Shown: positions 28,049 through 62,363 of the stretch, piece after piece
Layout: the number at the start of each line of letters is the position of its first letter
How positions within the stretch are numbered: the first letter of the stretch is position 1
Origin: an uncultured virus (IMG/VR IMGVR_UViG_3300010214_000051)
Lineage: Duplodnaviria; Heunggongvirae; Uroviricota; Caudoviricetes
IMG/VR virus record: IMGVR_UViG_3300010214_000051
Coordinates: 1-64,000 of that record
Reading direction: 5' to 3' (one strand)
DNA length: 64,000 nt
Program-made: the position numbers and the translations under genes
Notes under the pieces: generated by a model
The model's input: the letters and a program-made list of their open reading frames with translations, nothing else
Told to the model about the DNA's origin: nothing
Database searches by the model: none

Positions 28049-29977
28049 TCAAGCCAAAAAAGACATGATGTCCGTCCCGACAGTGGCGCGAGAAAATTGA
28101 GAAACCGTTGATCGAGGAGCGACAGTTTCTGGCGGCGAGTCCAGGTTAAACCGCTCGCGCAGGAAGGCGATGTAGTCCGGTTCGGCCTCCATGATGATCG
28201 CGTTCATGCCCAGGCGACGCGCGGCCTCGGCCGTCGTGCCGCTGCCGCCAAAGGGGTCGAGGACCGTCCCGCCCGGCGGCGTGATGTGACGGATGAAGTG
28301 CTCCATCAGCGAGATCGGCTTAACGGTCGGGTGACGCGATCCGGCCCGGTCTGCCTTGGTCGCCTTGCCGTGGTAGATGGCCGGCGGCATCTCCGGGTCG
28401 TCGATCAGGCCGGCGTCGATCGCCCACAGGTAGTCTTCCTCGGTGGTCGGGAAGCTGTTGAAGAAGCGGGCCGCGCTGCCGGTGTCGCCGCGCGGTTCAT
28501 AAGTCTTGCCGGAATCCGATGTCGCACCGAAGGTATTCTTCTGTGACCTCGTGGCATCGCTGCTTTTGCCCTGCTGCCCCTTGCTGTCGGGGAAGATCGC
28601 GCGCACGGCCTCGCTGTCGTCGTGCAGCAGGTTCGCCGGCCAGCGACCTTCGGGTTGCACGAACTCGTCCTCGATCTTGCGACCAGCTTCATACATCCCC
28701 GTCGCTGATCCCCACTGCTCGCGCGCTCCCTCCGATTTCCCATACGCGCCGCCGTTCAGATCGTCCGCCGTAGGCACACGGCACCCATCCACATTGAACG
28801 CCCCGACGCCGTGCTTCAGCAGGTTCAGGACGCCGTTCTTCTCGCTGAACGGCTTCTGGCCGAGGTAGACGGGCTCGAGCCGAACCTTAGCCGCGCCCAC
28901 CCGGTCGGGCGCCACAGGCACAAGCGGCGCGATAGCAATCTCGGTCGCAATAGTGCCGACTCGTGACAGCAATCTGACACAAGCTCTTTTCAAACAACTG
29001 CCCGCAATGGTGACATTCGACGAGTCGCCAATGGGTTCGTTCAGGTGAGTGGTGCAACCGCGTATGATCCGACCAGTTAATGACTTCCAGGTTTTCAGGT
29101 CGGTTGTCACTTCTGGTGTGATTGCGATGGTGAACGTGCTCCCAAGGCTCCAAAGCGCGGCCAAGGCGGTCAGCCATGATCTTACGGTGTTCGAGCACAT
29201 ATTCGTCACCAACGCGGATAGCAATGTATCCGTCAGGCCGCACATATCGACCGCCACGCCAGTTTGCGCCTCGTTCGCCGCGCTTCGAAGAAGAGGAGCA
29301 AGACCTTGAACAATACTTGGCTCGATCAGCCCATGACCGTTTAGCGTAGAAATCAGTTCCGCAGTGCTGGCATTGCTTATCAAGTCCGGCGCGAGCGCCT
29401 TTTCTCGGCACGATGGAATCTCCATCATCATGTAGAGTGCAGACTGTATCAGGTCGAAGAATGCGTCTGTCGTGTCCCTGGGCTTCTGACCCAGGTAGAC
29501 ATTTTCAAGAGCGGGCTTTTGCGTCTGTGCCCCATAGCGCCAGCCCTCCCACCCGGGAAGCTTCGGATTGTGCGCCTTCGGCATCCCACTGCCGTTTAGC
29601 CAACCGTGCATCGGGTGCATGATGAACCCGGCAACTTCCATCGCGCACGCCTGCCAGTGGCCGGTGCGGGCGCCGCTGAAAGCGAACACCATGCCGCCGG
29701 GCAGCAGGATGTCGTAGATCAGGCGCCAGAACTCAGGGTCGCGCTCGATGCCCGTGCCGTCCCACTGTTTGCCCATGAAGCCCTTGGACGCGCGGGCGAA
29801 CGCGCCGTCGGTCCCGTGCTTGGCGGGCGCAGCGCCATCCTTCCCGAAACGCTTGGTCACCGACACCAGGCCATAGGGCGGATCAGTCACAACGGAATGG
29901 ACGCGCACGCCCTGGTCGATGAGCCGACGCAGGCTGACGCGGCAGTCGCCTTCATGGAGGGTGATGCTGGGCGTCAC
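28049..29977 (-). CDS. N4/N6 DNA methyltransferase (beta class) carrying a 630-bp insertion
   Basis: TDPPY, HPTVKP..L, LDPFGGSGTT motifs. Confidence 0.92.
   Translation of the reverse strand: MTPSITLHEGDCRVSLRRLIDQGVRVHSVVTDPPYGLVSVTKRFGKDGAAPAKHGTDGAFARASKGFMGKQWDGTGIERDPEFWRLIYDILLPGGMVFAFSGARTGHWQACAMEVAGFIMHPMHGWLNGSGMPKAHNPKLPGWEGWRYGAQTQKPALENVYLGQKPRDTTDAFFDLIQSALYMMMEIPSCREKALAPDLISNASTAELISTLNGHGLIEPSIVQGLAPLLRSAANEAQTGVAVDMCGLTDTLLSALVTNMCSNTVRSWLTALAALWSLGSTFTIAITPEVTTDLKTWKSLTGRIIRGCTTHLNEPIGDSSNVTIAGSCLKRACVRLLSRVGTIATEIAIAPLVPVAPDRVGAAKVRLEPVYLGQKPFSEKNGVLNLLKHGVGAFNVDGCRVPTADDLNGGAYGKSEGAREQWGSATGMYEAGRKIEDEFVQPEGRWPANLLHDDSEAVRAIFPDSKGQQGKSSDATRSQKNTFGATSDSGKTYEPRGDTGSAARFFNSFPTTEEDYLWAIDAGLIDDPEMPPAIYHGKATKADRAGSRHPTVKPISLMEHFIRHITPPGGTVLDPFGGSGTTAEAARRLGMNAIIMEAEPDYIAFLRERFNLDSPPETVAPRSTVSQFSRATVGTDIMSFLA
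28887..29411 (-). CDS. HNH endonuclease with Zn-binding repeats, nested out of frame in the methyltransferase
   Basis: GGAG RBS + GTG; CxxC..CS..C, EHR.IM...LGR.L...EHVHH.N....DNRPENL. Confidence 0.9.
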   Translation of the reverse strand: MPRKGARAGLDKQCQHCGTDFYAKRSWADRAKYCSRSCSSSSKRGERGANWRGGRYVRPDGYIAIRVGDEYVLEHRKIMADRLGRALEPWEHVHHRNHTRSDNRPENLEVINWSDHTRLHHSPERTHWRLVECHHCGQLFEKSLCQIAVTSRHYCDRDCYRAACACGARPGGRG

Positions 29978-30976: not shown

Positions 30977-31296
30977 GCCAACAGGTCGATTTCGGCGACC
31001 GCGTCGTCGATGTCCTCGGGGGCGTCATCCTCGAGATCGAGCAGATCCGGCGTGTCCGCCCTCGGGGCGCCCGCTGCGTCGATCATCGCCCGGCCTTCCG
31101 GGGTCGCGATCAGGCGTCCGTCGTCGCTGATCTCCATGTGCGTTTCGGCCGTGGGGTCGTCGCTCAACGACTTCAGCGCCTCCATCAGGCCGGACTTCTG
31201 GACCGGCACATGGATGTAGCCGAGCGGCGTCATCACGCCGACGGTGGGCGCGCCGTCGACCTTGCGGATGGCGGCGGTCAGGTTGCGGAGTTTCAT
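30973..31296 (-). CDS. Hypothetical protein
   Basis: Coupled ORF with acidic tail ending EIDLLA. Confidence 0.7.
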   Translation of the reverse strand: MKLRNLTAAIRKVDGAPTVGVMTPLGYIHVPVQKSGLMEALKSLSDDPTAETHMEISDDGRLIATPEGRAMIDAAGAPRADTPDLLDLEDDAPEDIDDAVAEIDLLA

Positions 31297-32249
31297 GCTG
31301 CGTCCTTCAGGCGTTGTTCGGTTTCCCGGCGTCGCGCCAGTTCGGCGCGCCCGGCTTTGGTAATGGTCCAGGTGATGCGCTTCTGGCGACCAACCTTGAC
31401 GTAGTCTTTGGCGACCCAGCCCTTCTCGTTCATCTGAGACAGGTGGCTGCCGACCAGGTAGCGCTGGACGCGCGAAAGGCCGGCGATCTCGGTGCTGAGG
31501 CGCGCGATGCCGTCGGACATGGCGACCAGTATGCGGCCCGGCCCGGTCTCGGTGGTCAGGCTTCGCTGTTTGGAGCGAGGCTGTGCCGCGTCCTGAAGCG
31601 AGTAGCCCTTGCCCCAGTGCGTCACGAGATGCCCGTCGGCCTGCAGGTCGCGCAGCTTCGTGCGGATTTTGCAGACGAAGACGTCGATGATCTTGATGCC
31701 GGCTTCGGCCGTCTCTGTGGAGTAGAGCGTCGAAAGGAGCGCGTCCTTGCTGACCACGCGGTTCTTTCGCGTGCCGAGGATGTTCAGCAGCCGTCGCTCA
31801 GAGTCAGTGAAATGCACGGGCTTGCCATTCACCGCCACGCCGGTTTCTCCGAGGGTGATGGGGCCGACGCTGATTTCGTTGGTCGCGCGCCCCAGGGCTC
31901 GCCGGACGATGGCCTTCGCGCGCGCCGCAAGGACTTCGCGGCGGACGGGTCGCACGACGTAATCGTCGGCGCCGGCCTCGAGCATCCTGGCGACCGCGTC
32001 GGCGGAGGCTTCGGTTCGCAGCACGAGGATGGGCGTGCTGCCCCGCTCTCTCAGGCGATGCAGGACATGCTCGGTCGTCGCGCCATGCAGCGTCTCGCCC
32101 AGCACGATCAGGTCGTAATCATAAATGCCGGCCAGCTGGACAGCATCGTCGGCGTCGTCCGTGTCGTAGAGCGACACCTCTGCCGCCGACAGCGCCCGTC
32201 GAACCCCGGCCGCAACCTCGCGGTCGCCTTCGATGATGAGGACTTTCAT
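31293..32249 (-). CDS. CtrA-like response regulator with degenerate receiver and extra C-terminal wHTH
   Basis: IYDYDLIVL, GADDY, KIIDVFVCKIR.KL, T.WG.GY CtrA signatures. Confidence 0.85.
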   Translation of the reverse strand: MKVLIIEGDREVAAGVRRALSAAEVSLYDTDDADDAVQLAGIYDYDLIVLGETLHGATTEHVLHRLRERGSTPILVLRTEASADAVARMLEAGADDYVVRPVRREVLAARAKAIVRRALGRATNEISVGPITLGETGVAVNGKPVHFTDSERRLLNILGTRKNRVVSKDALLSTLYSTETAEAGIKIIDVFVCKIRTKLRDLQADGHLVTHWGKGYSLQDAAQPRSKQRSLTTETGPGRILVAMSDGIARLSTEIAGLSRVQRYLVGSHLSQMNEKGWVAKDYVKVGRQKRITWTITKAGRAELARRRETEQRLKDAA

Positions 32250-32488: not shown

Positions 32489-32824
32489 TCAGATGTCCCC
32501 GAGCGCAGCCAGGTAGAGATCCAGGATCGCTTCCTGCTCCTGGCGCTTGGCCTTGTCCTGCTTCCGCAGGCGCAGAACCGTGCGGAGCGTGGGAACACAG
32601 TAGCCCTCGCCCTTGGCTTCGGCGAAGACCTCCTTCATGTCCTGCATGACGGCCTGCTTGTCCTCGTCGAGGCGTTCCAGTCGTTCGATGATGGACCGCA
32701 AGCGACCCTGGGCCGTGGCGGTCAGGACGTCAGGGCTGGCGTCGAAGGATGCGTCGTCCATGGTGTCCTCATTCGCAAGCGGGCGAGAGCCGTAGCCGCG
32801 GGGTTCGTCAAACAGGTCGGTCAT
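32489..32824 (-). CDS. gapR: GapR-like nucleoid-associated protein (DUF2312)
   Basis: TAQG.L.SIIER.ERL...K......KEV.AEAKG.G......RKQD.AKRQE..AILDLYL.A.G. Confidence 0.92.
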   Translation of the reverse strand: MTDLFDEPRGYGSRPLANEDTMDDASFDASPDVLTATAQGRLRSIIERLERLDEDKQAVMQDMKEVFAEAKGEGYCVPTLRTVLRLRKQDKAKRQEQEAILDLYLAALGDI

Positions 32825-33263: not shown

Positions 33264-34436
33264 TCATGTCAAGGCAGCGCGATCCGCCAGGCGGTCGATT
33301 TCCAGCATCAGGCGGTCGGCGCCGATGCGGGCGTGGTGACCGGGCGCGTTGTAATAGGCCTCCAGGCGATACAGGGCCTCGGCGTCGTCGGGCCGGATGT
33401 TGTTCCGGGTGACGTATTCCAGCATCGTGATGGCGATCTGGCGCGGCGGGTGGATGTCGTGCGGGAAGGCCTCGCGGATCTCGACGAAGTGCTTCGCCTT
33501 CAACAGGTCCTCACGACCGTTCTTCGACCGCCAGCGGGTCAGGTATTTCAGGATCGACCCGACGCAGAAGTCGAGGCCGTTCCGCATACAGAACTCGGTC
33601 GGCTGAATGGCGAGGCTGCGGTAGTGAGTCCCTCGGACTTGCCGCTTCATAGGGTCGATATTCTGGACTTCCTCTGCGCCAGAATCGTGCAGGTGTTTCC
33701 AAGTGCGACCATCTCGGATGTGCCAGATCGCACCCGTCGATACACCATACTCTTCAGCGAGTACCTTATGCGTTTCATCGGGGCGGCCGAGGATTTCGAT
33801 CACTTCGGATTCGGTCAGCTTTGCAGTGTTGACCTTTGCTCCGTGCGACCATGTGCCATGCTTCCGGGAGTCGGCGCTATTTTGGGCCGGCGTCCCCCAG
33901 ATCAGGTTCGTCCAGTGGTTGTTATCGCGCGTACCGTCCAGGTGGCGCACGACGTGGTCAGGGGAAGGTTTCGGACCTCGGAAGGCCATGCAGACAAGGA
34001 TGTGCGCCTTGGTGTGCCACAGACCATCGACGGGGTCGTAAAGCGCAACAGAACGATAGCCGTCTTTGTCCGGTCGAGTAGTGAGCACGCGACCCTCTGT
34101 CGGTTTTGGGGCGCAGTTTCGAGCGGGCTTCCAAGAGCGGATTTCGCCATGGCTGGATGCCTCATAATCAGGCCACCCAGGAATCGCGCGCCATTCTACG
34201 GCGACGATCTCCTCTGCAGGCGCAACCGAGAAGCCGTCCTGTTCAAGATAGGCGGCCTGCTCGGACGTCATGTCCACGCCAGCCGCGGCGAACGAGCCTT
34301 TTGCCGGCATGTCCGTCACGAAGCCATGCTCGTCGGATGCCACACACGTCTCGGGCGCTTCGTCGCCCTGATCCCAGGCCGCCTTGCAGCGAAGGCAGCG
34401 CCACCCGGCGCCAGTGTTGATGAGTTGGTGCGTCAT
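33264..34436 (-). CDS. DUF3310 (SaV / T7 gp1.7-like) protein with in-frame NUMOD4-HNH-HTH insert
   Basis: EWRAIPGWPDYEASS.G.IRS; VRHLDG.RDNN..TNL.WGT; QV.G.HY....IQP...G..LKY..R...KNG.EDL.KA. Confidence 0.85.
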   Translation of the reverse strand: MTHQLINTGAGWRCLRCKAAWDQGDEAPETCVASDEHGFVTDMPAKGSFAAAGVDMTSEQAAYLEQDGFSVAPAEEIVAVEWRAIPGWPDYEASSHGEIRSWKPARNCAPKPTEGRVLTTRPDKDGYRSVALYDPVDGLWHTKAHILVCMAFRGPKPSPDHVVRHLDGTRDNNHWTNLIWGTPAQNSADSRKHGTWSHGAKVNTAKLTESEVIEILGRPDETHKVLAEEYGVSTGAIWHIRDGRTWKHLHDSGAEEVQNIDPMKRQVRGTHYRSLAIQPTEFCMRNGLDFCVGSILKYLTRWRSKNGREDLLKAKHFVEIREAFPHDIHPPRQIAITMLEYVTRNNIRPDDAEALYRLEAYYNAPGHHARIGADRLMLEIDRLADRAALT

Positions 34437-34717
34437 GCTGCGTGGTCCTTCAGAAACGTGCGGCCGGCGTCAGTGATGCGCCACCAGCGGATTCCGCCGT
34501 GCCGCCCGTCGAGCCCTTCCACGAGCCCGGCTGCCCGCAGCTTGTGCATGAACCTGTTCGTGCGTGCCGTCTGGTTCCTCACGGCGCGAGATCCATGCCG
34601 CAGGTCGTGTTCGGGGAACGCCCGGTTCATGAAGCGTGTCGCAATGGGGCCGGCGTCGAACCGGCTGCCCGCGACGATCTTCAGCACGGCGACGGCGAGG
34701 TCCTTGTCGACGGTCAT
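34433..34717 (-). CDS. Hypothetical wHTH-like protein
   Basis: L...GLV....W.IT.AGR motif; ATG overlaps the thyA stop. Confidence 0.65.
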   Translation of the reverse strand: MTVDKDLAVAVLKIVAGSRFDAGPIATRFMNRAFPEHDLRHGSRAVRNQTARTNRFMHKLRAAGLVEGLDGRHGGIRWWRITDAGRTFLKDHAA

Positions 34718-36072
34718 GCCGAGACCTCCGCGCGAATGGCCGGATGCGGGTCGTAGCCGACCAGGGCGAAGTCCTCGGCGGCCCATGAGTCCATGTCGGC
34801 GCGAACCGGCACGATGTTCAGCTTCGGGAACGGCCGCGGCGCCCGACGGACCTGCTCTCGGGCCTGGTCGACGTGGTTGCCGTACAGGTGCAGGTCGCCG
34901 ATGAAGTAGACGAACTCGCCGGGCTGTCGCCCCAGCACGACCGCGAACATTTCCAGCAGCAGGGCGTAGCTGGCGATGTTGAACGGCGCACCAAGAAACA
35001 CGTCCGCGCTGCGCTGATACATCGACAGGCTCAGCCGCTCGTCGGCGCCGACGTAGAACTGGATCGCGATGCCGTGGCACGGCGGCAGGGCCATCATCTT
35101 CGTCTGAGAACTGTCCCAAGTGGAGATGATGTGTCGTCGTCCGTGCGGATCGTCTCGCAAGGACTGCAAGACCTCTGCGATTTGGTCGACGCCCTTGTTC
35201 TTGCGCTCGCTACCGATCAGTCGCCAACCCTCTGCCACGGGCCGTTTGCCGCGCAACATTTGGCAGAAGTTGCCCTGGTGGAGGTCGCGCGCAGTGTAGA
35301 ACTCAACGGGGTTTTCGATGACAGCAGTCTCGCCGCCGTCGTGCTTCACGTAGTGCCGCCAACCGTATTTCGCTCGCTGGTTGTCGCTGCGGCTTGCCCA
35401 GATGCAGGCTGCAGGACCGTAGGTGAATCCGTCACCAATAGTGTCCTTGTCGAGTTGATAGTCCGACCAGTTCGCCAGTTTTTTGTCCCATCCGTCCATC
35501 TCGTGTGCGTCTGCTGCGAAGACCGAAAACTCAAGCCAGCGGTCGACTACGTGAACGCCTCGATGCCCATACCAGGAGTAGGTGTCGTCGAGTTCATGAT
35601 AGCAGCGGAGGATCATGGCCGACCATGTCTGGTATAGCTTCTCCGTCACGCTGTCTGCCCGCGCGCGAGAGAAGCCGGACTTGCTCGCGATCGCCAAAAA
35701 GTCTGCCGCCGTACCTTCGCGCAGGCGCGGCGTCGGTTGCCGGATCGACTCGGGGCGGGCGCCGTAACTGCGCCAAAGGTGACCGTACACCGGGCCAAGA
35801 TTTCCATGGGAGTCGGCCCATTCGTCCCAAATCGTGACGCCCTGTTCCTGGAGCCAGCGGATGTTCGTGTCACCGCGCAATAGCCACAGCAGTTCGGCAA
35901 CCACGCCCCGCCAGAACACCTTCTTGGTCGTCAGCAGCGGGAATCCGTCGGCCATGTCGAAGCGCATCTGCCGGCCGAACACCGATCGCGTGGCCGTGTC
36001 GTTACGGGTCTGACGAACTGGCGCGTCCAGCAGTTCGCGCAACAGGTCGAGGTATTGGTTTTCCGGGTGCAT
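34714..36072 (-). CDS. thyA: Thymidylate synthase with in-frame endonuclease-domain insertion
   Basis: FPLLTTKK, ELLW, IWDEWA, LGPVYG, MALPPCH, YQRSAD.FLG.PFNIASY, GD.HLY.NH. Confidence 0.95.
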   Translation of the reverse strand: MHPENQYLDLLRELLDAPVRQTRNDTATRSVFGRQMRFDMADGFPLLTTKKVFWRGVVAELLWLLRGDTNIRWLQEQGVTIWDEWADSHGNLGPVYGHLWRSYGARPESIRQPTPRLREGTAADFLAIASKSGFSRARADSVTEKLYQTWSAMILRCYHELDDTYSWYGHRGVHVVDRWLEFSVFAADAHEMDGWDKKLANWSDYQLDKDTIGDGFTYGPAACIWASRSDNQRAKYGWRHYVKHDGGETAVIENPVEFYTARDLHQGNFCQMLRGKRPVAEGWRLIGSERKNKGVDQIAEVLQSLRDDPHGRRHIISTWDSSQTKMMALPPCHGIAIQFYVGADERLSLSMYQRSADVFLGAPFNIASYALLLEMFAVVLGRQPGEFVYFIGDLHLYGNHVDQAREQVRRAPRPFPKLNIVPVRADMDSWAAEDFALVGYDPHPAIRAEVSA

Positions 36073-36596
36073 CACGCGACCCTCCTGCAGCGAACGCCGT
36101 CCTTGACGACTGAGGCGGAGAACTTCTGATCCTTGGCCCAGCGCTGCGTATAGGAGGACGCGCAGCTCTGGATGCTCGAGACGGTTTCTCTGGGATTGCC
36201 CCGATAGAAGTCCTCCGGGGGCACTAGGAACGTGTCGCCGACCTTCATCTTGGCGAACGGCCATTTGCCCGAATACTCGCGCTGCGCCTGTTCTTCGGCG
36301 GCGGCCCCGCCATTTCCGTAGCGCTCACGGTATTCCCGGAAGGTGAGCAGCACGGGACCGCTCTCGGTGCTGATGCGCCCTGTCTCAAACGACGCCGGCT
36401 CTCGCAGTCTCCCTGGCGCCGGGTCGCCCAGCAACAGGGCGGTCAGGACGCGGCGCGGCGGGCGCCGGTCAGCCTCAGTGCGACGAAACGAACTGGTTCC
36501 GTAGAAGGCGTCCAGGTCGCTCGGCTGCGCGCGCATCTGACCTCGGTCGAACACGGTCGGAGCGTTTTTCGGATGGACAAGAGCGGTGCTGATCAT
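36072..36596 (-). CDS. Hypothetical protein
   Basis: LT..L.GDP.PGR and K.PF..M.VGD.F motifs seen in phage proteins. Confidence 0.65.
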   Translation of the reverse strand: MISTALVHPKNAPTVFDRGQMRAQPSDLDAFYGTSSFRRTEADRRPPRRVLTALLLGDPAPGRLREPASFETGRISTESGPVLLTFREYRERYGNGGAAAEEQAQREYSGKWPFAKMKVGDTFLVPPEDFYRGNPRETVSSIQSCASSYTQRWAKDQKFSASVVKDGVRCRRVA

Positions 36597-59981: not shown

Positions 59982-60027
59982 AGCAAGAGCGGTGCGGCTA
60001 GGGTGGACTCCTTATCGGAGACCGCCC

Positions 60028-60528
60028 TTGCCAACATCTGCCCGCTACGACTTTTTGCCCCCAGGCGTGACCTGTAAGGCCGCGCCTCGCGATATTACCG
60101 GAGAACGTTTCGATCGACTCGTTGCACTTCGTTGCGTCGGCAAACATGAAACCGGGTCGCTTCTATGGGAATGTCGCTGCGATTGTGGCGGGACCAAGGT
60201 TGTGCGTTCCAGCCATCTCGTGAACAAGAAGACGCGCTCATGCGGCTGCTATCGTTCTTATCCGAGGAAGCGGGGACACACGCCTTGGAACAAAGGTTTA
60301 TCGTATCAAACCAAGGGCGACACCGAGGTTTTCAGAAGCAAAAAGGCATTCACTGAAGCGGCGCTGCGCCGTTTCGGTAATAAATGCTCGGAATGCGGTT
60401 GGGACAAAGGGCGATGTGACGCGCATCATATTGTCCACAGGTCTAAGGGCGGTCTCAACACAATCGAAAACGCGAAGATTTTGTGCCCCAACTGTCACCG
60501 AGTCCACCATGAAAAGGCGGGCTGGTGA
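60028..60528 (+). CDS. Free-standing HNH endonuclease
   Basis: W.C.CDCG, SCGC, C..CG...HHI.....GG.N...N...LCPNCH..HH. Confidence 0.88.
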   Translation: MPTSARYDFLPPGVTCKAAPRDITGERFDRLVALRCVGKHETGSLLWECRCDCGGTKVVRSSHLVNKKTRSCGCYRSYPRKRGHTPWNKGLSYQTKGDTEVFRSKKAFTEAALRRFGNKCSECGWDKGRCDAHHIVHRSKGGLNTIENAKILCPNCHRVHHEKAGW

Positions 60529-62363
60529 TGCGTTTCGGCAGTGTTTGCAGTGGCATCGAAGCCGCCTCTATTGCGTTCGCGCCCCTTGGTTGGGAGGCCG
60601 CGTGGTTGGCAGAGGTCGACGTGGCTGCGTCGCAGGTTCTCTCCCATCGGCTCGGTGCGACGGCGCCCGTCTTCCCGCTCAACGGGACAGAGAAGGCAAT
60701 CTCGCGTCTGAAATGGGGTGGTCGGATCACCAACTGGGGCGACATGACCCGTGTCGCAGAGATGGTTCGCTCGGGTGAAGCCGAGGCGCCTGACGTTCTG
60801 TGCGGAGGAACCCCGTGCCAGTCGTTCTCTATCGCGGGTCTTCGGCGCGGCCTTGACGACGCGCGAGGCAATCTCGCGCTCGCGTTTATTCAACTGGCGA
60901 ATGCGATTGACGAACGTCGTGCTGCCGAGGGCAAGGAGCCTTGTATTGTCATATTTGAGAACGTCCCCGGACTCCAGTCCTCCCATGATAACGCCTTCGG
61001 CTGTTTCCTCGCCGGACTTGCCGGGGATGACGACGCTCTTGAGCCTGGCCCACGACCTGGACCAGCACGGTCCTCTGCCTACTGGACATGGGACAAAAAG
61101 GCCGGTCAGCACCGCGCTAAGTGGCCGGACGCGGGTGCTGCTGTTGGACCCCAGAGGGCAGTCGGCTGGCGGATCGGCGATGCCCAATGGTTCGGCTTGG
61201 CCCAACGACGCCGTCGTATCTTCGTTGTCGCAAGTGCTCGTGAGGGGTTCGATCCCGCAGCAATACTTCTTGAGTTCGACGGCGTGCGCCGGGATTCTCC
61301 GCCGAGCCGAGAAACGGGGCAAGAAGTTGCCGGAACCCTTGATGCTCGCACTGATGGCGGCGGTTTCCCAGGATCAGACGGAGCCGCACAGTATCACGTC
61401 GTCCCTCATGGACTCGGAAGCGGACGACCTGATGGATCTGTTGGGCTAGGGTTCGCGGTTGAAGTCTGCCCGACGCNNNNNNNNNNCGCAGGCGGGAACA
61501 CGACCGGGGGCGATCGTCCGCCTGGCACCGACGTCGACACAGCTGATAGTCTCATCGTGCAGGCGGTCCCGACCTGGTGGGACGGATCGCCGGTCAGTCA
61601 GACGCTCGACGCCGTTCTCTACAAGGGGCAGACGATGCCCGAGAAGAACCGCTTCCCGGCGGTGCTTCAGCCGGTCGCGTTCACGCAGAACAGCCGAGAC
61701 GAAGTCCGCCTCATCAACGGCGACGGGCAGATAGCAGGGACACTTAGTGCAGAGGGCGGGACGCACCAGACGAACTATATCGCGCAATCCGTCGCCCTCC
61801 GTGGTCGAGACGGCGGCGCCACCGCAGAACTTGGTGGCGAAGCGGCCTATGCGCTGCGGGCGTCCGATGGCGGCGGGAGCGATCCCTATGTGCTGGCGCC
61901 GGTGGTCTGCGTCACAGGCGACGTCACCCACACGCTGAAGGCCGAAGGGTTCGACGCGTCAGAGGATGGCACGGGTCGCGGTCAGCCGATTGTAGCTTTT
62001 GACACCTACAATCAATCGACCAGTGATGTGACACATACGCTCAGGAATCCGAACGGAACCTTCGGGGACGCACTGCCTGCCGTCTTCAACGGCGCCACCA
62101 TGGCCGTCCGCCGCCTGATGCCCATCGAATGTCACTATCTTCAAGGTTTTCCGGGCGACTGGTGCGCCGTCCTGACCGGGCCGAAGGGCGACAAGATCGC
62201 TGCCGACGGCCCGCAATACAAGCAGCTTGGGAACTCCTGGGCGGTCAATCACGCCCGCTGGGTCGGCTATCGGATCGCCGCGTGGCTCGCCGCGAATCCG
62301 TCGCGCCCGGTGATCGAGATGGAGTTCGACGAGAACCTGCTGATGTGGGCGCTCGCGGCATGA
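60525..62363 (+). CDS. DNA (cytosine-5) methyltransferase with long repetitive variable region
   Basis: SVCSGI, GGTPCQ.FS, ENV, Q.R.R.F, RRL.P.EC..LQGFP, YKQLGNS; spans N gap 61477-61486. Confidence 0.93.
   Translation: MMRFGSVCSGIEAASIAFAPLGWEAAWLAEVDVAASQVLSHRLGATAPVFPLNGTEKAISRLKWGGRITNWGDMTRVAEMVRSGEAEAPDVLCGGTPCQSFSIAGLRRGLDDARGNLALAFIQLANAIDERRAAEGKEPCIVIFENVPGLQSSHDNAFGCFLAGLAGDDDALEPGPRPGPARSSAYWTWDKKAGQHRAKWPDAGAAVGPQRAVGWRIGDAQWFGLAQRRRRIFVVASAREGFDPAAILLEFDGVRRDSPPSRETGQEVAGTLDARTDGGGFPGSDGAAQYHVVPHGLGSGRPDGSVGLGFAVEVCPTXXXXAGGNTTGGDRPPGTDVDTADSLIVQAVPTWWDGSPVSQTLDAVLYKGQTMPEKNRFPAVLQPVAFTQNSRDEVRLINGDGQIAGTLSAEGGTHQTNYIAQSVALRGRDGGATAELGGEAAYALRASDGGGSDPYVLAPVVCVTGDVTHTLKAEGFDASEDGTGRGQPIVAFDTYNQSTSDVTHTLRNPNGTFGDALPAVFNGATMAVRRLMPIECHYLQGFPGDWCAVLTGPKGDKIAADGPQYKQLGNSWAVNHARWVGYRIAAWLAANPSRPVIEMEFDENLLMWALAA
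61180..61449 (+). CDS. Overprinted alternative-frame ORF inside the C5 methyltransferase (start uncertain)
   Basis: Frame open 60751-61449; SSLSQVL...PQQYFLS..AC.GILRRA..RGK.LP; ends DDLMDLLG. Confidence 0.6.
   Translation: MPNGSAWPNDAVVSSLSQVLVRGSIPQQYFLSSTACAGILRRAEKRGKKLPEPLMLALMAAVSQDQTEPHSITSSLMDSEADDLMDLLG

Follow-up and report, generated by a model that had tools for sequence, protein, structure and literature searches.

A ShiLan-type out-of-frame HNH element in a phage DNA methyltransferase, with a probable overprinted helical insert

The DNA analyzed here (hereafter the window) is a stretch of 64,000 nucleotides that forms part of a 64.5-kb provirus record with lambda-type terminase, portal, capsid and tail genes along with a gene for a GapR-like protein; the latter gene, together with the Rhodobacter-phage relatives of the methylase discussed below, suggests an alphaproteobacterial host. 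A minus-strand ORF (29977..28049) spans 642 amino acids with zero internal stops and encodes a beta-class N6/N4 DNA methyltransferase that is reduced to 432 amino acids when the insert described below is subtracted. The ORF matches the Pfam family N6_N4_Mtase in two separate stretches, and the top Foldseek matches of its structural model are M.BceJIV, M.RsrI, M.MboIIA and CcrM. Both the catalytic DPPY (29873..29884, minus strand), which we take to be motif IV, and the SAM-binding DPFGGSGTT (28232..28258, minus strand), presumably motif I, are intact; the N-terminal location of the former, the C-terminal location of the latter and the predicted fold resembling M.RsrI and CcrM are those of beta-class amino-methyltransferases.

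The methylase gene contains a complete second gene, which encodes a 174-aa HNH endonuclease (28887..29411, minus strand, from a GTG start to a TAA stop) and is offset by 566 nt, that is, located in the third frame of the methylase. The predicted nuclease consists of an N-terminal Cys4 finger, an HNH core (HNH_3, E = 7.8e-7; residues 75-117, 29061..29189, minus strand) and a C-terminal Cys4 finger, with all eight finger cysteines invariant in the five aligned HNHs, and its TAA stop overlaps the Ala-Lys codons immediately ahead of the second copy of a motif that occurs twice in the methylase. The first copy, LENVYLGQKP (29480..29509, minus strand), starts at residue 157 and the second one, LEPVYLGQKP (28850..28879, minus strand), at residue 367, 630 nt away. 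Five synonymous codons and a single residue distinguish the two copies, which include a direct repeat of 18/20 nt (29481-29500 and 28851-28870; repeat family D14) with a longest exact run of 8 nt. Because D14 is one of 40 similar-sized repeat families in 3.5 kb, the DNA repeat is weak evidence when taken alone, and it gains meaning through the peptide and the family. A preliminary description of this DNA had already listed the duplicated motif with its 630-nt spacing, the HNH gene with its GGAG and GTG, the unbroken methylase frame that leaves 432 amino acids (642-210) and the absence of intein ends, and these points agree with the sequence and the repeat listing. With respect to the intein ends, we found no Hint domain and neither a Cys/Ser start, nor a His-Asn end, nor a Cys/Ser/Thr after the site.

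The thymidylate synthase ORF of the window (36264..34714) contains, between WRSYG and GVDQ, a 189-aa in-frame HNH-like domain (35194-35760, minus strand; PHROG 2081, E = 5e-36) with no visible intein ends, possibly a second non-splicing insertion, in this case in frame. A C5 methylase gene (60525..62363), which also includes a run of N, contains a 232-aa ORF nested in another frame (60751-61449, plus strand); this ORF has zero matches in Pfam or PHROG, and we take its C-terminus to be reminiscent of the alternate-frame beta subunit of M.EcoHK31I-type enzymes. An HNH-like ORF, recognized by eye, adjoins this gene (59992-60528). The window further encodes a CtrA-like response regulator that has an extra winged helix (31293-32249), the GapR-like protein (32489-32824) and a NUMOD4-HNH-DUF3310 fusion (33264-34436).

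Among 50,697 phage records searched with tblastn, the top matches of the HNH protein are methylases with the ShiLan domain (40-43%) and a sequence from cyanophage Cr-LKS3 (46%); when translated, these matches display the site, frame, stop position and duplicated strand of the window. The identity to the ShiLan HNH is 43% over 82% of the query (E = 2e-24). The ShiLan domain is a hidden HNH insertion in the gp65-type DNA methylases of mycobacteriophages (Arsenault et al. 2025, PMC11855218; Gosselin et al. 2023, PMC9957025). The 2025 paper on this domain covers ten phages and Pacc40, documents a hidden HNH, an unbroken host frame and an 11-aa duplication in which the insert opens with 11 residues similar to the 11 that follow the site, proposes looping-out of the insert, and describes zero protein-splicing features and host methylases that are not essential (PMC11855218). 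The insert in the window shares with ShiLan the PF01555 methylase, the site at LK/PAFEPIVVARKP, a third-frame HNH with two zinc fingers, the open host frame, the duplicated 11-aa motif, the place of the HNH stop (TAA on the codon matching the host Lys; TAAC in ShiLan), the patchy distribution and a greater similarity of the inserts than of the host genes. It differs in belonging to another host clade, in the presence of YLGQKP instead of VVARKP in both copies, and in length (210 vs 202 aa). The HNH start codon here is located about 100 nt into the insert, behind GGAG, whereas the GTG start proposed for ShiLan lies 18 bp into the insert, with no ribosome-binding site, and would be used by leaderless initiation (PMC11855218). 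However, ShiLan itself has GGAGG 6 nt ahead of a GTG at +98, so that this looks like a matter of start-site calling rather than a difference between families. Given the same site, frame, stop and duplication, the insert in the window is, judging by its sequence, a ShiLan homologue and thus a member of a published kind; the design is not new, and the single locus is ordinary within its class. The preliminary description cited ShiLan as a similar case; the likeness is closer than it claimed, the insert being a homologue in the very same position, and the motif duplication, which it had presented as a new twist, is already part of the published account (PMC11855218). The words promoter, purifying, synonymous, amphipathic and metagenom are absent from that paper.

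A search with an alignment of five HNH sequences yielded at least 183 loci (at least 80 viral, 23 from genomes and at least 80 from metagenomes) which, together with the window and eight earlier loci, comprise a screened set of 192 loci, 191 of them with an HNH match; a scan of viral contigs with the single HNH protein gave one match, to an unrelated free HNH. At least 139 of the screened loci lie inside the same methylase family, and 52 were assigned to a free class, of which L043, found at another methylase site, is a member; redundant records are counted in these raw numbers. Both copies of the motif were located in at least 123 loci, which form 67 clusters, with a copy-to-copy spacing of 164-256 aa (mode 192 among the 123 loci listed). 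The 16 of the 139 inserted loci that lack a located pair of copies are L068, L083, L191, L069, L080 and 11 others that are truncated at contig ends or were missed by the pattern and have zero stops in the core. In the HNH tree, which includes the ShiLan-site group, the HNH of the window falls in an open fork beside long-branch free HNHs and belongs to no starred set. The nested HNH genes carry no annotation in the named phage records that were fetched.

Some loci depart from the common arrangement. In L068, L083 and L191, which loosely group with L069 and have no obvious -10 box, a related HNH is found out of frame in the loop preceding the intact motif; the duplication is absent, the frame is open, and this arrangement is possibly a simpler ancestral or a derived state. 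Three loci seem to represent states of decay: in L069, the C-terminal half of the methylase is gone and the host frame contains 12 stops; in L080, the N-terminal half has been replaced by another gene and the frame is still open; and L082 has a single nonsense codon, in the leader. In L043 (3915-4334), a distinct HNH lies out of frame after GAVNI, which is a third site used in this methylase family, with the host frame open across 720 aa, and in L023 (3530-4360) an out-of-frame HNH resides within an apparent intein, again in the same methylase family.

The boundaries of the insert can be set from the family data. We place the 630-nt mobile insert at 28877..29506 (minus strand), in a register that is uncertain by a few codons, so that the element-borne span would begin at about codon 5 of the motif in copy 1 and end at codon 4-5 in copy 2. 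Across 77 close pairs, diversity falls at codons 5-6 of the motif in copy 1 and climbs at codons 6-7 in copy 2, which implies that copy 1 belongs to the element from its Glu on, in recoded form, and that copy 2 belongs to the host from about its Pro on; the third-base content is consistent with this division. In 26 empty alleles, the site aligns as KPA/LEP. Such alleles are common: they are present in Rhodobacter phage methylases (49-54% identity) and in most of a set of 58 loci. One DNA contig (run X2) lacks exactly 630 nt, jumping from 28862 to 29493, with 67-69 nt aligned on each side; 13 of the 136 aligned letters differ from the window, which makes this contig the empty allele of another phage rather than an excision product. 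Run X10 is an empty allele with a different loop.

Comparison of inserts and exons points to mobility. As a rule, the two inserts of a pair resemble each other much more closely than the exons do (25 disjoint pairs), with amino acid identities of 97% vs 54%, 96% vs 57% and 95% vs 57% in three example pairs. In an exon-only tree, built by a quick search from 40 of the 67 inserted representatives (those with complete exons) and 42 empty rows, the methylase of the window nests with 25 empty alleles (SH-aLRT 100), apart from all other carriers. P0001 and run X1 carry a near-identical insert (97% at the amino acid level) in a methylase with different N- and C-terminal loops, a pattern that may reflect either recent spread or exon mosaicism within the clade of the window. 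The insert thus appears to be a mobile homing element that would cleave the empty allele. The preliminary description had expected a mobile element without protein splicing, insert-free alleles and junctions that could be fixed by alignment to them; the empty alleles were recovered both as loci and as the shorter contig, and together with the close pairs they set the register to within a few codons.

The open host frame carries little weight in a single sequence: 8976 of 20000 within-gene synonymous shuffles (45%) of the window leave it open, and the probability of an open frame given the codon usage of the host (P0) is 0.16. An open frame is thus within chance for one sequence, and the significance comes from the family. 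When each HNH was recoded with the codon usage of its own locus, the 80 non-redundant inserted alleles were found to contain 0 host-frame stops vs 359.6 expected (two of the 80 cores were mis-cut and contribute nothing to the counts), whereas the 30 controls (29 free HNHs and L069) contain 123 vs 121.2 expected. A stop between the copies occurs in only one of the 123 alleles listed (L082), and among close relatives outside an intact methylase, the free-standing L249 contains 16 such stops, compared with the 12 of L069. At the level of the population of alleles, these sequences indicate that the methylase frame is translated straight through, which would give a 642-aa protein.

The wobble positions of the HNH gene seem to specify more than the absence of stops. 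Fourfold-degenerate HNH sites carry column-specific bases that fix host-frame residues (for example, Leu in 95%, Val in 73% and Asp in 72%); 73 of 110 fourfold columns depart from host usage, partly through stop avoidance and AT bias, and 12 columns, chosen after the column deviations had been seen, all differ from the free HNHs. Synonymous choice shifts the host-frame composition toward Glu, Asp, Gln, Leu and Cys and away from Gly, Pro, Val, Trp and Tyr. With stops left out, the hydropathy shift caused by synonymous choice alone has its maximum at 100 degrees (p=0.003 for columns 55-130 and 0.017 for all columns, vs 0.41 for the free-HNH control), although these p-values overstate independence because the 67-80 alleles share ancestry. 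The ratio of substitution rates at codon positions 3 and 2 is 2.75 in 25 inserted pairs vs 5.3 in a free control of only 5 pairs, a hint of host-frame constraint. The HNH-frame identity is equal to or greater than the host-frame identity in all 25 pairs, so the host frame is the weaker constraint. Collectively, the statistics show that the HNH wobble positions are tuned toward an amphipathic-helical reading of the host frame, the fold itself being a prediction. In the window, the helices are predicted in residues 169-352 (28922..29473, minus strand), where several host-frame residues favored in the family (columns 81, 116, 120, 125 and 164) are missing. Two AlphaFold runs, with and without the 26 empty alleles, modeled the insert helices at pLDDT of 40-70 and copy 1 below 50, so that a stable domain is a prediction only. 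Searches of PHROGs, Pfam and the ESM Atlas with the host-frame insert retrieved zero families; the ESM Atlas matches at 0.90 are short hypothetical proteins, at chance level.

The duplication is maintained as a beta-strand peptide and not as a DNA repeat. Residues shared by both copies use an identical codon in 132 of 377 cases vs 157 expected, and the longest exact run between the copies across the family has a median of 5 and a maximum of 8 nt. In copy 1, over 67 clusters, K is found in 67, A/G in 67 and P in 62, and substitutions are restricted to strand formers regardless of the middle base; because the search itself required KPxxE in copy 1 as well as the end of copy 2, conservation there is not counted. 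Where the codons of copy 1 have C or G in the middle, position 8 is occupied only by Thr and Cys (17/17 and 9/9), and position 9 is Trp or Cys in 15 of 17. The copies co-vary within alleles (210 vs 143 +/- 6; 0 of 5000 permutations, with kinship not removed), and in the clade of the window both resemble the local host sequence. Copy 2, mostly the host's own strand, is part of the core sheet in both AlphaFold runs and copy 1 has no confident placement; mutual information with the neighboring strands gives 13 and 26 of 108 pairs with z>2 for the two copies, values that are confounded by kinship. Both copies remain strand-like, and either could form the core strand; the role of copy 1 may accordingly be that of a rebuilt core strand, of a spare or placeholder strand, or of an operator as well.

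The leader between copy 1 and the HNH gene contains candidate expression signals. A start codon is found 4-13 codons ahead of the first Cys pair in 61 of the 67 clusters, mostly 101 nt past the start of copy 1. A Shine-Dalgarno sequence of at least 4 nt precedes it in 46 of 61 leaders vs 22 of 193 control sites; in the window, this is GGAG (29420..29423, minus strand), 8 nt ahead of the start. A TAnnnT box is present 28-51 nt upstream of the start in 41 of 61 leaders, exactly 39 nt upstream in 27, compared with 134/854, 83/787 and 48/596 control windows (8-16%) and with 20.5 expected from recoding that preserves the peptide. In the 31 main-register alleles, TATAAT is matched at 61-96% per base. 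The -35-like hexamers peak at a spacer of 17 (10/45), some leaders, such as that of L076, are a perfect TTGACA-17-TATAAT, and the rare codon ATA accounts for 23 of 28 Ile codons at the -10 place vs 186 of 1194 (16%) in exons. The predicted extended -10 box of the window, TG-n-TACAGT (29443..29451, minus strand), is weak here and near-consensus in many relatives; a generic promoter and terminator scan of the window reported 0 sites and missed it. We infer that the HNH gene carries its own sigma70-type promoter, Shine-Dalgarno sequence and start codon within the first 100 nt of the insert. The conservation of the host frame in the leader (II, LEAxLW) is partly due to these signals rather than to the protein. 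GGAAC before and GAACCT after the -10 box recur in leaders of inserted alleles, which may reflect a coding constraint or a regulator site. In a literature survey that covered a minority of the subscription journals, the only accounts of this kind were the two Gogarten-lab papers and one preprint, and the promoter cassette and the helix-level selection appear in none of them.

Other systems share individual features with this element. Pacc40 gp60 is an out-of-frame HNH insertion within a methylase with an open host frame (PMC11855218), but in another methylase family, at another site and with another nuclease. Aeh1 mobE is an HNH gene inside the coding region of nrdA, likewise with no splicing, and an element-derived peptide there became needed for enzyme assembly (PMC3045599); the Aeh1 NrdA is, however, split into two polypeptides, whereas here a single chain would be made with the HNH overprinted. 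The T4 genes for I-TevI, for I-TevII and for I-TevIII have their own promoter inside the interrupted gene and a homing-site look-alike beside it, but reside in self-splicing group I introns (PMC2988022), of which none was found here. Inteins with out-of-frame endonucleases also encode the endonuclease in frame 3, within a host frame that is open, but possess splicing domains (bioRxiv 10.1101/2025.01.02.630785); the insert in the window has none.

The explanation that probably accounts for these observations is a ShiLan-type homing element that does not splice, whose HNH is expressed separately and whose 642-aa host methylase contains an overprinted helical insert. Under this scenario, the HNH would be expressed from its own sigma70-type promoter, Shine-Dalgarno sequence and start codon in the first 100 nt, and would cut insert-free alleles at or near the DNA of the KPAxEPIxxxxKP strand, with repair from the carrier copying the element in. 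The methylase frame would be read through the insert, and the overprinted amphipathic-helix domain would hang from a variable loop beside the last strand of the sheet. The element would open with a recoded peptide copy of the interrupted strand, such that the position in the sheet could be taken by either copy, or the spare could pack alongside; the recoding of copy 1 plausibly protects the carrier from cutting. A different emphasis, compatible with this explanation but of rather low probability as the main reason for the retention of copy 1, is that copy 1 is kept mainly as DNA, namely, as an uncleavable look-alike of the homing site and an HNH autorepressor site near the -35 element, as in I-TevI. 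Copy 1 indeed ends where the -35 hexamer starts, the copies co-vary within alleles, the first and second bases of codons 10, 12 and 13 are 91-97% alike between the copies, and there is a precedent in T4 (PMC2988022); nevertheless, the third bases are near even, and the Thr/Cys at position 8 and Trp/Cys at position 9 are a protein signature. It is improbable that the long methylase is made but inactive or dispensable, with the frame kept open and helical solely to avoid toxic or aggregating products or downstream polarity. Such methylases are not essential (PMC11855218), exons refreshed at each homing event mean that intact catalytic motifs prove little, and the insert is modeled with low confidence; yet the element-borne copy 1 shows strand-type conservation in elements that range from 30 to 67% GC, which is difficult to account for unless copy 1 aids folding of the enzyme, and translation of the HNH itself would guard most of the insert against polarity.

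The remaining explanations all restore a short enzyme. Strand-like copies at both ends that could join the junctions, along with the invariant Lys of copy 1, would suit an unknown protein-splicing or proteolytic step that joins both copies after translation, but we regard this as very unlikely considering that a Hint domain is absent, that neither a Cys/Ser/Thr start nor a His-Asn end is conserved among the 139 loci listed, and that no such step was found for ShiLan (PMC11855218). Bypass of the insert by ribosomes that leave copy 1 and resume at copy 2, or excision of the DNA by recombination between the copies, would yield the 432-aa enzyme, and the matching codons at both ends and the contig shorter by exactly 630 nt could be read this way; we give either route scant credence, given that the exact runs are short and synonymous identity is below chance, that the shorter contig is another phage's allele, and that neither route requires an open, helix-tuned frame. 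The preliminary description had offered three mechanisms, of which carriage of the insert in the protein stands, whereas translational bypass and excision by recombination are unsupported because stops are purged, selection is of the helix type, and wobble likeness is no more than expected by chance. An unrecognized intron would fit the internal promoter, Shine-Dalgarno sequence and nested HNH typical of phage group I introns (PMC2988022), but RNA splicing is hardly credible here: the HNH gene takes up all but about 100 nt of the insert, the folding energy of the HNH part is ordinary (mean z of -0.45 for 20 alleles out of the 80), and a spliced insert would keep its host-frame stops, which are instead purged. 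A group I/II ribozyme core was absent in an Rfam search with E up to 5, where the 4 matches were chance ones, none of them an intron.

The two questions raised in the ShiLan paper, namely, how the hidden HNH is translated and whether the insert is retained in the methylase, receive testable answers from the family. Tentatively, ShiLan-type elements might be a large and old class of self-contained, non-splicing cassettes that get round the disruption of their host by overprinting, in which the helical domain arose de novo in HNH wobble positions and the duplicated strand serves both as a spare and as an operator of the nuclease; copy 1, as a spare, could let the N-terminal half-sheet fold during translation or alternate with copy 2 in the slot. 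If the non-splicing explanation is true, these elements would represent a third way, besides RNA splicing and protein splicing, for a homing gene to reside inside a conserved coding site, and would provide dozens of natural alleles, from 30 to 67% GC, that show a new protein domain arising through overprinting.
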